IMG/VR virus record: IMGVR_UViG_3300045988_111617
DNA length: 64,000 bases
Source of the DNA: a virus
Reading direction: 5' to 3' (one strand)
The position numbers and the translations under genes are program-made. Below, one piece after another: positions 3,041 to 14,338 of the stretch (position 1 is its first letter; each line of letters begins with the position of its first letter). Below the pieces are notes generated by a model. It did no database searches, was not told the origin of the DNA, and was given only the letters and a program-made list of their open reading frames with translations.

Positions 3041-6000
3041 ATGAATTCAGGAATTAATTGTGTTGTTGACACTCCAATACTTCAGGAATTATACAACAAA
3101 GTTAAAAACAAAGTAGAAAGTTATGAGGAATTTAAAACTCTTGTATCCCTTTGGTGGAGAAGAGAGAAACAAAAAAATCCTCAGTTTGATTATGAAGTAT
3201 ATCCATCTCCTGATAAGATAGATTCTCTGCTTGCTGAAAGAACTAACAAGAAAGAAGAAGGAGTGGATTCAACTATTTCATATACTCCAAAAGGTAAGAG
3301 AACTCAAGTATATACTATTAAAGGGTCTCATATCTATAATAGGGATGGCAAAGAAGTATTTGCAAAAGACAGTATAGATAGAAATAAGATATTCGCTAAT
3401 TTTGCTGTTAAATCTGGGAGAGCAGTAGTTGTCGAGCATAATAACAGTAGATATGTTGTAAATGATAGAAATCAAATTATCTCTGTTACTACTGGTAAAA
3501 TGATGCAGTGGGATGAGAAGAATAAGGATAGAAATGCAATCATTAAAGCTGCTCAGGAGAAGTTTAATGGGAGAAAGTCAGCGGAAGTAGAAGAAGCTCC
3601 TATATTTGAAGATAATGAAACTTCTTCTGAGGAAAGAGGCACAGCAATAAATAACTTTATTCCATTTTCAGAAGAAATAGAAGAGCTTTCTCTTGAAGAG
3701 AGAGGGCTTACTCCTGCTATAAATCCTAATGATTTGGAAGCTAAAGCAGATGTTGCTTTTGGAACTCCTCAAAGAAGAAGGGATAGAGTTAATCTTATTG
3801 CTAATGCTATTAGACAAAATTTCAGTATTGAATTTGAAAGACAGAAAAGAGTTTTACAGGAAAGACTTTCTTCTGAAACAGATGCTGATAAGATTGTAGA
3901 ACTACAGGAGCAATTAGATACTCTTGATGAAAAAAGAGCTGTTGAACTCGGTTTTAATAATATCCTTGTAAGAATAAGGAAAATGTTTCAACCAAAAGAT
4001 TCTCTTCCTGCTTATTACAATTCAGAGTTTGTGAAACTTCAAGATAATTGGGATACAGTAGTTGCAGAGGCCCTGGAGCTTTTAAAAGAAACTGATGGTT
4101 TAGCAGTTGATTTCATTGAAACTAATTTTGATGATGGAACTCAGATAGATGAAGAATCAGGAGATTACTTTGATGATGATAGTCAGAAGGAGTATGGTTA
4201 CAAAGATGGTTGGATGACTAAAGCTAGATTTGTAGACCAGAGAGATTCTCTCAGTAAGAAGGTTAGAAAAATCATTTGGACTACTGATAAAATCGGCTTT
4301 GACGGAAAGCCAGAAATTGATGATTTAGGTTTTAAAAGATATTTGCAACCAGATATGGTGCAAGCTACTCTTTTACAAGCTTTTGGACAGTCAAGAAATT
4401 CTGAGCATTTTTGGAAAATCCTTAATGATTTAGCTAAAAGAAAGAAGTGGGTTCAGCCTCTTATAGACAGACTCAATAAAGAAGAAGATACTAAATCTCA
4501 ATTTTATCAGAACTTTAGAAAGGAGTTTATGCCTTATTGGGTACAACTTCAGAAAGAAGTAAAAAATACTGATGGAGAAGTAATATCAGTTGTAACTCAA
4601 ACTAAGAGGGTAAATAAAATTCCTGGAATTATGCACATGCTTGATGAATGGAGGGATAATTATGAGGAAGGGTCTAAATTAGATGAGCTTAGTGTTTATA
4701 AAGAAGGACAACAGTTAGACAAAGATAATGCAAGTAAAGCATTTGATTATATTTCAGAGCTTCAAAATAGTTATCCTGAGGATGTTAATGAATGGATAGA
4801 ATCAGATGATAATCTCAATAAGGTAATGAGAGCTCTGCACATGGCAGGAATAACTGCTGATGCAGAAGTTGTAAGAGAAGCTTTAAAAGGAGAAGACTTA
4901 CAAGACGGTACTCAAAGACTTGATAAAATTTATCAGCTTTTATCTGGAATGTTCAGAGATATTAAAGAGGATAAAGTTGGCAAGACAGTATCTTCAGATG
5001 GCACTGTACAATATGATGACCTTCTTAATGCTTATGACAGCACTTATACTATAATAGCTAAAATAATAGACACTATTCCAGAAGATTCTGTATTAAGTTC
5101 TTTTAGAGAAGCAGGTAATTCCTATCAGAGTTATTCAGCTCCTTCTTATTTAGGTAAACTTATAAATAATTTAAAGAACTTAGATGGAACAGCAGAGTCT
5201 TTAAACAAGTTTTATCAAGAACAATATGGTCAATATAAATGGTTTTATAGTAGAAATACAGGATATAGAAGTTCTTGGCTTAGACAACTTGTAAATAGCC
5301 AAAGTAAGAGAGATTTGCTTGATAGGAAAGTAATTTTACATTCTGGTAAACTTGAATTTAATGACTGGGGAAATTCAGAATATGCTAAGGTAATGATTTC
5401 TGAATTTTTAAGCACTGCTGATAATAATTCTGCTTGGTATTACTTACCTCTGCTTGCTGATGCTGAATCTGCTGAGTTCATAAAGTTCACTAAATATACT
5501 GATTCTTCTGTACAAGATGAATCAGGTAATTATATTCCTTATGACAAACTAATTCTTAATGAATTAGAGGATGTGGTAAGACAAGAGTATGACAGAATCA
5601 TGCTTGTAAGGCAGAGAGAGGGTAAAGTAAATCCAATAGCTAACTTTGATATTATAAGAGACAAGGATGGAGAGGAAATAGGAGTTGTCAGAAATGCTGA
5701 TGGAGATATTATCAGTAGAAATACTGGTAATGAGTTTAAGTTTTTCCCTGCACTTAATACCTATAAAATAAATGGCAGACTCTTTATAGATGTGCTTCAA
5801 GAAAAAATACTTAGAAATGATTCTGATGTAGCTAGCTTTATTCAATCAGCCTTAAGTGATATTATGGAGAGTGGATTTGCTAAGTTCATGAAAACCATGG
5901 ATGAAGCAGGAGTTTTAGAGACTAATAATGGAGTTTCTAAATATTTTCAAATGAAAGCAAGTGAGTTGGAAGGGACTCTGAGAAATTTTTATTGGAATAA

Positions 6001-13200: not shown

Positions 13201-14338
13201 GCTTCCAGGCATTTTAAAGGAAATCGGAACGGATATAAAATCATCTAAACTTTCTTTGTTCATAGAAAAATTTGATATTCTTCATGATTATGAAAATGAA
13301 GTAAGAGAATTATCTTTTGGTAAAGGTTGGTTTAAGAAAATGCTTAGTTCTAACACTCTGTATTTTATGTTGAGAATGGGTTCTCATTGGGGAGAAACTA
13401 GAACAGCTTTAGCTCAAGCACTTCATATGAAACTCAAAGATTCAGGAGGAAATCAAATAAATCTTTGGGATGCTCTTGAAGTTAAACCTATAGACTCTTC
13501 TCATCCAGAATATGGAGCTACCTTAGAATTGAAAAAAGGGGTACTTAAAGAAGATGGAACTGAACTTACAGAAGCAGACTTTGAGCAGTTTAAAAACAAA
13601 TGTATGGCTTTAAATCAAAAATTATATGGTATATATAATCAGGCTGATAAAAATGCTTTACAAAGAACTGCTATAGGTAAATTAGCTTTCTTATACAGAA
13701 GCTGGATGATACCTGCTATCAATAGAAGATTTGGAGGAGCACAGTATAACTTCATGTTAAACTCTGACACAGAAGGTTATTATAGAACTCTGGGTAAATT
13801 TTTATGGAGCACTCTGAAAGATTTAAAAGAATTTAAATTCACTGCAATAGCTTATTGGCACGAGATGTCTGATGCAGAAAAGGCTAATATGGCTAGAGCT
13901 TTGACTGAACTAACCACTTTTGCAGTATTAATAGCAGCAAATAGCTTCTTACTTTCTGATTGGGATGATAAGAAAAACCCTTGGGTAATGAGGAATTTAG
14001 CCTACTTGTCAAGAAGGTTACAAACTGAAGTAGGAGCTATGGCACCTACTCCATTAATATTTGATGAGGCTTTCAAGATTCTTAAATCACCAATGGCAGG
14101 TATAGACCCAGCAGAAGGACTACTTAACTTTGTATGGAATGCTGTTAATCCTTGGCATTGGGGGCTTGAAACAGACTTTATGGGATTAGGAGATGAAGAG
14201 AGACTTATAAAAGGAGGTAAATATAAAGACCATTCTAAATTATATAAATCCTTTATGAATTCTCCATTCTTACCTATGAAGAGGTCTATTGAGAGGGCTA
14301 TAAATCCAGAAGAGAGTATGCCTTTCTTCAACAATTAA
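10280..14338 (+). CDS. Giant protein (1352 aa), likely virion/ejected protein co-expressed with the RNAP-like gene
   Basis: 4.06-kb ORF immediately downstream of the 2411-aa gene. Ends at the bidirectional terminator. Confidence 0.8.
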   Translation: MKSCAVIPQIKGKDGNVKDSKLFKDLLSFTNNNREQTNRLYYITKNPKFQSDYSDILKYDDLGEVTMNSLLKLDLSSMLEEGNLKRKISENYGFFEKGAPVVLDDTTENYNSLVEKAISFNASSEYKDNFSAIIRRTPERGIYVSLEKSTTENQVLAQKMAASYNLNKKIRDFLGKNGISVGALNSLDLALGRSGVTDFSKAFKEGEGIAELIRIANGSRGEEVLPEEFAHFIIESMENEPVVSRLLNLMSNRELAESVLGDSYGAYETLTDKALAHEAAARLLLDSIYELNNLQKGVWSSLLSRVKSRFNSKFSKMDAESLLRSVGEAKAAAQQLATNLPLQKISFQINDRQLSHIDEKLDSIKKLLKRLQEQEIKRYHIYKTRTTKRGIKKDSSGFQASQRQFINLLESHLMSGKFMEGIVFYLQEASDTIKSIKNLYEKLQTPSLSFEEEARYLREIGNYIGTYSTTIQDIRSTLNEGVLDDQELGPEIKALVTNISETLSRDKTHLGELSFRHFNNFLQKYFPNEGIDITFKGKEQHIGREDLKNLLKHTDYDPSLINIWINSAAETNDIIIKLADSIIKKYKDRARNETIALRKRIQVAAQKLRAAGISNEDFMFEKNSKGEYTHNYVSEIQWAKFKEAQRDMYKRVEQKYGKEPVGDNLDKRNMEISQWYRDNTNEQHLPNSKYRNPNFLSGAQLAYYNEFMAIREELLNLLPPNIYVEPGKMEDPMRAIQVRRDFVDRLSHSPVENWWGEIKDSLADTIIRREDDTEFGVKLAPQDFTGRELMSLPIFFTKKVERASDLSHDTVSTLIMFADSVYNYSNLSEIVDSLEVGRDVMMSQWGKEFGRTASKELGGKPVVSMVREFGNTVVEKLSKDNANFITAYNNLLDSQVYGRYLKDEGTIGNTKVDKQKAASFWNRVASLNQLALSALAAMAASAQDMANVNQEAVAGEFFSAGELFKADNIYFFKGLPGILKEIGTDIKSSKLSLFIEKFDILHDYENEVRELSFGKGWFKKMLSSNTLYFMLRMGSHWGETRTALAQALHMKLKDSGGNQINLWDALEVKPIDSSHPEYGATLELKKGVLKEDGTELTEADFEQFKNKCMALNQKLYGIYNQADKNALQRTAIGKLAFLYRSWMIPAINRRFGGAQYNFMLNSDTEGYYRTLGKFLWSTLKDLKEFKFTAIAYWHEMSDAEKANMARALTELTTFAVLIAANSFLLSDWDDKKNPWVMRNLAYLSRRLQTEVGAMAPTPLIFDEAFKILKSPMAGIDPAEGLLNFVWNAVNPWHWGLETDFMGLGDEERLIKGGKYKDHSKLYKSFMNSPFLPMKRSIERAINPEESMPFFNN

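Follow-up and report, generated by a model that had tools for sequence, protein, structure and literature searches.

A predicted virion RNA polymerase gene block in a crAss-like phage of the Steigviridae

Two giant open reading frames (ORFs) follow one another on the plus strand of a 64,000-nucleotide stretch of viral DNA (IMG/VR record IMGVR_UViG_3300045988_111617), the whole of which is called the window below. ORF1 (3041..10276) encodes 2411 amino acids and ORF2 (10280..14338) encodes 1352, each from an ATG start. An earlier note on this DNA had reported ORFs of these sizes, the larger carrying the sequence GSDFDVDKFY, and both coordinates and motif agree with the ORF list and the translations. 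The gap between the two genes, given in that note as 4 nucleotides, needs a small correction: the ORF1 stop codon (TAA, 10274-10276) is followed by a 3-nucleotide spacer, TTT, and then by the ORF2 ATG at 10280. The note also described a two-gene cassette, but the module comprises three genes, since the convergent minus-strand ORF3 (14400..20651, 2083 amino acids) is an orthologue of Gp47 of phage crAss001 and carries the HExxH motif of the module. As argued below, this region is very probably the 'transcription gene block' of a Steigviridae crAss-like phage, with ORF1 as a single-chain two-barrel DNA-dependent RNA polymerase (RNAP) of the crassvirus virion type, ORF2 as its partner (by orthology, an RNAP-associated virion cargo protein) and ORF3 as the third module protein.

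The identification of ORF1 is based on its relationship to gp66 of Cellulophaga phage phi14:2, a polymerase of solved structure (PDB 6VR4). When ORF1 was compared with the PDB chain sequences by phmmer, the sole match was 6VR4_A (E=5.2e-27), with residues 970-1830 aligned to gp66 864-1679 at 25% identity over ~860 residues; in this comparison TGSDFDVDKFYLMFPEF of ORF1 is aligned to TGSDFDIDKMYVMLPNF of 6VR4_A. Direct comparison with phi14:2 gp66 by BLASTP gives E=3e-40. A family profile built from 36 homologues matches 6VR4 at E=4.8e-45, through the collinear stretches gp66 869-1522, 1535-1795 and 1949-2060, and matches nothing else in the PDB. A tblastn search of 50,697 phage records with ORF1 returned 97, almost all of them crAss-like. 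The best matches, which come from cr128_1, cr85_1, crAss001 and the PhiCrAssBcn isolates and are labelled 'putative RNA polymerase', cover 87-90% of ORF1 at 39-40% identity; identity to the proteins so named in crAss001 (Gp50) and cr128_1 is 39-43%. Scans of ORF1 against Pfam, PHROGs and NCBIfam found no polymerase model, and returned a single sub-threshold PHROG of unknown function.

The sequence GSDFDVDKFY occupies residues 1519-1528 of ORF1 (nucleotides 7595-7624). Its central DFDVD (residues 1521-1525; 7601..7615, plus strand), the predicted Mg2+-binding catalytic motif, matches 1361-DFDID-1365 of gp66. Taken by itself the motif is not significant, as DFDxD occurs in 918 of 20,000 shuffled versions of ORF1 with the same size and composition (4.6%); what lifts it above chance is the homology to gp66, not the motif. 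The D-F-D-x-D pattern is invariant in alignments of 36 and of 66 homologues. Each Asp of the gp66 DFDID is needed for RNA synthesis, and the fourth residue of the motif is Ile or Val in every crAss-like RNAP (bioRxiv 10.1101/2020.03.07.982082), a rule that the Val of ORF1 fits. The suggestion in the earlier note that DFDVD is a candidate RNAP catalytic loop is thus well founded, given the alignment with D1361, D1363 and D1365 of gp66 and the homology of the ~860 flanking residues.

A five-way alignment of ORF1, phi14:2 gp66, p-crAssphage gp44, crAss001 Gp50 and the cr128_1 protein contains 87 invariant columns, among them G-S-D-F-D-x-D and the arginines R1476 and R1482 of ORF1. The earlier note had also pointed to conserved Lys or Arg residues as something to look for, and three lysines answer that description: K1166, K1211 and K1280 of ORF1 are invariant, correspond to K1027, K1065 and K1119 of gp66, and are shared with p-crAssphage gp44. 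They precede the connector or stand at its beginning, and would probably belong to the first double-psi beta-barrel (DPBB-1) and to the active site.

Using the gp66 domain boundaries given in bioRxiv 10.1101/2020.03.07.982082, the catalytic core of the enzyme can be laid out on ORF1. The homologous region (residues 970-1830; 5948..8530, plus strand) is predicted to contain both DPBBs, the connector, the bridge helix and the trigger loop. MAFFT mapping places the connector equivalent at residues 1255-1409 (6803..7267, plus strand; gp66 1095-1238) and the bridge-helix equivalent at residues 1702-1732 (8144..8236, plus strand; gp66 1529-1559), where Q1706, G1716, G1721, I1722 and N1725 are invariant in the five-way alignment. 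The trigger-loop equivalent, with a conserved SVDNVKDP, falls at residues 1759-1801 (8315..8443, plus strand; gp66 1598-1636).

Along its entire length (100%), ORF2 is 36-38% identical to the 'putative RNA-polymerase subunit' encoded after the RNAP gene in crAss001 (Gp49, 1349 amino acids), cr128_1 and many others. BLASTP also relates it to phi14:2 GenBank gp076 (E=8.5e-23), which we equate with the g065 of the phi14:2 paper because its gene comes next after that of the RNAP and the protein carries HEIMH. The earlier comparison with a crAss-like gp66/gp65-type cassette therefore stands, with ORF1 orthologous to gp66/Gp50 and ORF2 to Gp49/phi14:2 g065. In addition, the C-terminal part of ORF2 matches the C-terminus of the 4070-residue p-crAssphage gp44 (E=1.6e-8), annotated as 'RNAP catalytic subunit fused to unknown RNAP subunit', and the fusion of ORF2-like sequence to an RNAP supports a functional link between ORF2 and ORF1. 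ORF2 itself has no match in Pfam, PHROGs, NCBIfam or the PDB sequences (phmmer), and no HExxH motif. A degenerate zincin was considered, on the grounds that EEFAH of ORF2 falls under HEIMH of phi14:2, and was rejected as unreliable: BLAST homology begins only at ORF2 residue 545, and EEFAH is just as similar to the 'EE..AE.F' helix that lies downstream in the Gp47-type zincin.

ORF3 matches crAss001 Gp47 by BLASTP with E=2.7e-95 and 1.1e-31. It carries HEAFH, a putative zincin-type metal-binding motif, at residues 1719-1723 (15483..15497, minus strand), in a context, AAEGTTYHEAFH, that is identical in ORF3 and crAss001 Gp47. A broader pattern, T-x-L followed after ~12 residues by HExxH, is common to ORF3, p-crAssphage gp45 and the N-terminus of phi14:2 g065; a Pfam scan of ORF3 found no peptidase model at significance. 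Across lineages, HExxH is found on the Gp47-like protein (here and in crAss001), on gp45 at residue 1743 (p-crAssphage) and on gp076 at residue 245 (phi14:2), and so the putative protease appears to reside on different proteins of the module in different phages. The C-terminus of ORF3 is a predicted ADP-ribosyltransferase (ART) domain, ART-PolyVal (Pfam PF18760; residues 1892-2036; 14544..14978, minus strand), with E=5e-14, 53.7 bits against a cut-off of 31.2, and profile positions 1-139 of 140 covered. The same domain is absent from crAss001 Gp47 and present on the Gp47-like proteins of cr85_1, cr116_1, cr271_1, mouse crAssphage ctcc615 and Bacteroides phage BF1-TP2. A phmmer comparison of ORF3 with the PDB sequences gave nothing significant.

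Beyond ORF3 lies the structural block. Orthologues of Gp46 (20654..22702, minus strand; BLASTP E=1.9e-23) and Gp45 (22702..24882, minus strand; E=1.6e-94) are encoded upstream of ORF3, the former immediately so, and a further upstream ORF of 1912 amino acids matches a virion structural protein family. In crAss001, Gp45 and Gp46 are cargo proteins to which a channel role has been assigned (PMC10172136). PHROG matches identify the major capsid protein (MCP; 37757..39271), the portal (49093..51516) and the large terminase subunit (TerL; 51599..53908), all on the minus strand. TerL is 65.5% identical to that of cr116_1, 58.7% to that of IAS virus and 57% to that of crAss001, all of them Steigviridae of the subfamily Asinivirinae, and a family-A DNA polymerase gene (PolA) is found upstream on the source contig. 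On the sequences of TerL, portal and MCP, the presence of PolA and the gene order, we assign the phage to the Steigviridae, the beta crAss-like phages.

What does the convergent arrangement say about the lineage? The earlier note correctly described the cassette as convergent with the structural block and as differing in this from p-crAssphage, but took the layout as a sign of a divergent lineage, and that part of the claim falls. The order replication block, RNAP, partner, convergent Gp47-like gene, Gp46, Gp45, Gp44 is the same in crAss001, cr128_1, cr116_1 and IAS virus, so the layout is standard in gut Steigviridae, being shared by four genera of the family, and cannot serve as the mark of a new one. 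In p-crAssphage and phi14:2 the module genes are co-directional with the structural genes. GC skew changes sign at ~14 kb of the window, coinciding with the strand switch. The same note had placed the cassette on the early strand, which conflicts with the timing in crAss001: there the replication block with gp49 and gp50 belongs to the middle stage, the early operon is a small set of genes at the genome end, and gp47 is late (PMC8375218).

The nearest known system is that of crAss001 (MH675552; Steigviridae, Kehishuvirus), whose Gp50, Gp49 and Gp47 have 2412, 1349 and 2341 residues, compared with 2411, 1352 and 2083 for ORF1, ORF2 and ORF3. The two phages share an identical DFDVD, an identical HEAFH context, and an RNAP gene followed by its partner and convergent with a Gp47 gene that ends the structural block and is preceded by Gp46, Gp45 and Gp44 orthologues. 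Identity to the crAss001 proteins is 33-43% for ORF1, 36% for ORF2 and 24-30% for ORF3. The differences are that the first ~220 residues of ORF1 cannot be aligned with Gp50, that the small crAss001 Gp48 ORF has no counterpart here, and that ORF3 is ~260 residues shorter than Gp47 and yet ends in the ART-PolyVal domain that Gp47 lacks. Phi14:2 is more distant. Its polymerase core is homologous to that of ORF1, with DFD(I/V)D, connector, bridge helix and trigger loop all mappable, and the partner downstream of its RNAP is homologous to ORF2; however, its three genes are all co-directional with the structural block, its HExxH module is N-terminal, on the partner g065, whereas here it lies in the C-terminal part of ORF3, and ORF3 has no BLAST-level match to phi14:2 gp078. 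In p-crAssphage (Carjivirus communis, family Intestiviridae), gp44 has DFDVD at residue 1433 and ORF2-like sequence at its C-terminus, and the annotation of gp45 describes an RNAP-associated protein with a fused zincin protease (HESLH). Unlike the present case, RNAP and partner are there one 4070-residue protein, encoded co-directionally with the structural genes, and core identity is ~24%.

Wider comparisons reach cellular enzymes and a phage with a similar strategy. QDE-1, YonO and the cellular multisubunit RNAPs share with gp66 two DPBBs, a DxDxD Mg2+ site, the bridge helix and the trigger loop (10.1101/2020.03.07.982082), whereas ORF1 has Val instead of Gly at position four of the motif and, as predicted, both barrels in one chain. 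Foldseek comparison of structure models of the ORF1 core (described below) with the virion RNAP (vRNAP) of phage N4 was non-significant (E=4.7-8). The N4 enzyme is a T7-like single-subunit, right-hand polymerase, unrelated in fold to the two-barrel RNAPs. The strategy is nonetheless the same, as the N4 vRNAP (gp50; Schitoviridae) is a giant capsid-packed polymerase that is ejected for early transcription (PMC13434306).

Experiments with the two model phages suggest how the block might act. In phi14:2, gp66 is found in the virion, carries out DNA-templated RNA synthesis with Mg2+, is rifampicin-resistant and accounts for early transcription; g065 and g067 are packaged together with it, and the crystal form of gp66 is self-inhibited by a segment that blocks the cleft (10.1101/2020.03.07.982082). 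Mass spectrometry of crAss001 virions detected Gp45, Gp46, Gp47, Gp49 and Gp50, and the cargo zone of the capsid fits several copies, whose passage through the tail requires partial unfolding (PMC10172136). By orthology with these two phages, ORF1 and ORF2 would be made in mid-infection from a promoter of their own, probably by the host polymerase, and ORF3 would be made late, after which all three proteins would be packed into the capsid as cargo. During the next infection the cargo would be pushed through the tail, partly unfolded, ahead of or together with the DNA. ORF1 would then refold, be freed from self-inhibition by the cleft-blocking segment and, with catalytic Mg2+ bound by its DFDVD loop, transcribe the early genes of the phage without the host polymerase. 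The zincin-like module of ORF3 may process or activate the cargo, and its ADP-ribosyltransferase tail would arrive together with the cargo as an effector directed at the host.

Several points weigh against this picture. Packaging, ejection and activity of the three proteins rest on orthologues that are 25-43% identical. The literature on crAss001 is also in conflict over names: PMC8375218 predicts gp49 to be catalytic and PMC10172136 makes gp66 a homologue of gp49, while both DFDVD and the homology to 6VR4 are found in GenBank Gp50, which looks like a difference in numbering. Structure prediction gave limited help. AlphaFold2 was run twice, on residues 940-1860 with 36 sequences and on residues 1075-1665 with 66 sequences, and the models are of low confidence (predicted local distance difference test, pLDDT, 58.7 and predicted template modelling score, pTM, 0.36 for one; pLDDT 61.6 and pTM 0.51 for the other), with the Asp-triad segment below 50 pLDDT in both. 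In Foldseek searches of the PDB, no match but 6VR4 reached significance (E=6.7e-17 and 7.8e-7, probability 1.0), with template modelling (TM) scores of only 0.16-0.32, and QDE-1, YonO and the cellular RNAPs were recovered neither by Foldseek with these models nor by the family profile. The AlphaFold and Foldseek comparison proposed with the earlier note thus recovered 6VR4, through models with little confidence at the triad, but not QDE-1 or YonO. The models agree with homology to 6VR4 but give no independent placement of the Asp triad in a barrel loop; that placement comes from the alignment with the gp66 crystal structure.

The polymerase reading has to be set against other accounts of the same genes. 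It might be argued, from the frequency of DFDxD in shuffled sequences (the 4.6% given above) and from the lack of any matching polymerase model in Pfam, PHROGs or NCBIfam, that DFDVD arose by chance in a giant structural protein without polymerase activity, for example a fibre, a tape measure or an internal core protein. However, DFDVD and ~860 flanking residues align with a polymerase of solved structure and mutagenesis-tested activity, and DFDxD is invariant in all homologues examined; this account is effectively refuted, and we give it next to no weight. More serious, though still unlikely, is the proposal that ORF2, and perhaps much of the non-catalytic part of ORF1, serves mainly as an ejectosome or channel component for DNA and proteins, in which case 'RNAP subunit' would be a misnomer based on adjacency. 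ORF2 indeed has no recognisable nucleic-acid or polymerase domain in the databases searched (Pfam, PHROGs, NCBIfam and PDB sequences), ~1,600 residues of gp66 are without known homologues (10.1101/2020.03.07.982082), and in N4-type phages the vRNAP is ejected together with ejectosome proteins (PMC13434306). On the other hand, p-crAssphage gp44 joins the RNAP and ORF2-like sequence in a single reading frame, and the channel role in crAss001 has been assigned to gp45 and gp46 (PMC10172136).

Less likely again is the view that ORF1 and ORF2 act also, or mainly, as a non-virion polymerase for late genes within the same infection cycle, leaving ORF3 as the component specific to packaging and ejection. 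The difference in timing between gp49 and gp50 (middle) and gp47 (late) in crAss001 is in line with it, and the authors who reported that difference raise a same-cycle role themselves (PMC8375218); moreover, the ORF1-ORF2 pair appears to form a separately terminated unit on the replication strand. The evidence from phi14:2 points the other way. Middle and late transcription there is rifampicin-sensitive with sigma70-like promoters (10.1101/2020.03.07.982082), which implicates the host RNAP, and the self-inhibited crystal form of gp66 is read by its authors as keeping newly made enzyme off the genome (10.1101/2020.03.07.982082). Gp49 and Gp50 are, in addition, present in crAss001 virions (PMC10172136). 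A virion-packaged polymerase with two associated cargo proteins remains, in our judgement, much the best account of the locus.

Signals around the ORF1-ORF2 pair fit a unit that is regulated independently, with hairpins on both sides. Upstream, a consensus scan finds a terminator-like hairpin with a T-run (2894..2919, plus strand) ~120 nucleotides before ORF1, which may close the preceding replication-block operon. Downstream, the 61-nucleotide gap between ORF2 and ORF3 holds a perfect palindromic hairpin of 16 bp with A8 on one side and T8 on the other (14343..14378), which looks like a bidirectional intrinsic terminator between the two convergent genes. A scan for sigma70-type promoters was uninformative (62 sites, 62.5 expected). 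The -7 box of Bacteroidetes promoters has the consensus TAnnTTTG, and the element TAtcTTTG, read directly from the sequence 32 nucleotides upstream of the ORF1 ATG (3002..3009, plus strand), resembles it and can be regarded as a weak promoter candidate.

Variation among relatives of ORF1 raises the question of whether the packaged proteins carry anything besides the polymerase. Pairwise BLASTP shows that relatives 92-98% identical to ORF1 elsewhere (P0002, P0005, P0009, P0015 and P0020) contain inserts of ~160-770 residues at about residue 180, a domain-insertion hotspot (residues ~178-183; 3572..3589, plus strand) that is empty in this copy. Modules within the inserts include phrog_9995, phrog_2072 and a DprA-like one, and the N-terminal part of more distant homologues holds cpYpsA-SLOG, NADAR and DUF7831 domains. 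Together with the ART tail of ORF3, these variable inserts suggest that variable effectors may travel into the host with the packaged module proteins. It is a tentative idea, and one we consider possible but short of probable, that in this lineage the three virion-packed proteins of the polymerase module double as exchangeable delivery scaffolds for host-directed effectors. If the inserted domains are injected with the polymerase, they would constitute a rapidly swapping arsenal for host takeover or counter-defence in the first minute of infection, comparable to T4 Alt. We found no crassvirus paper on effector delivery: 'ADP-ribosyl' is absent from Yutin 2021, and the two surveys of polyvalent proteins and NAD make no mention of crAss.

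The block itself is ordinary. The crassvirus 'transcription gene block' has already been described (PMC7886860), and the module is well known from crAss001 and phi14:2. Nor is the protein rare: an identical ORF1 is encoded on two contigs, one of them the 104,618-bp ENA metagenome scaffold BRIT16-1_SAMN02333939, proteins 93-99% identical are encoded on many ~100-kb contigs of public gut metagenome assemblies, and 676 proteins match ORF1 at E<=1e-10. Deposited phage genomes are a different matter. Megablast of the 11.3-kb region against the 50,697 phage records gave no match, indicating that none of them is a close relative, and tblastn against the same records found nothing more than ~40% identical to ORF1, from which the phage is probably a genus-level lineage of the Steigviridae.

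The result matters little beyond annotation, where it places the contig among the crAss-like gut phages (Steigviridae) and shows its virion RNAP module to be intact and uninterrupted. Genes of this kind readily end up annotated as 'hypothetical', since neither ORF1 nor ORF2 is recognised by Pfam, PHROGs or NCBIfam. The present copy, free of an N-terminal insert and not interrupted by an intron or endonuclease, can also serve as a clean reference. Comparison of it with insert-bearing relatives, and of Gp47 orthologues with and without the ART tail, could hint at which effectors crassviruses inject beside the polymerase.

Three further observations concern the surrounding genome. The gene directly upstream of ORF1 (2259-2831, plus strand; 190 amino acids) encodes an endonuclease VII/HNH-type endonuclease (PHROG E=4.5e-35); an endonuclease gene splits the RNAP gene itself in bajarodcaudo virus 1 and cr116_1, while the RNAP gene is intact here. 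The RNAP core is nearest to those of cr128_1 and crAss001 (48-49% identity) and only ~30% identical to that of cr116_1, whereas TerL is nearest to cr116_1 (65.5%); these differing nearest relatives point to module exchange or to very uneven rates of change. Finally, 12 tRNA genes (Met, Thr, Leu, Phe, Cys, His, Ile, Trp, Asn, Ala, Pro and Gln), all but one confirmed by Rfam (11/12), form an array on the minus strand at 58249-59985, downstream of the terminase and a region of small genes.

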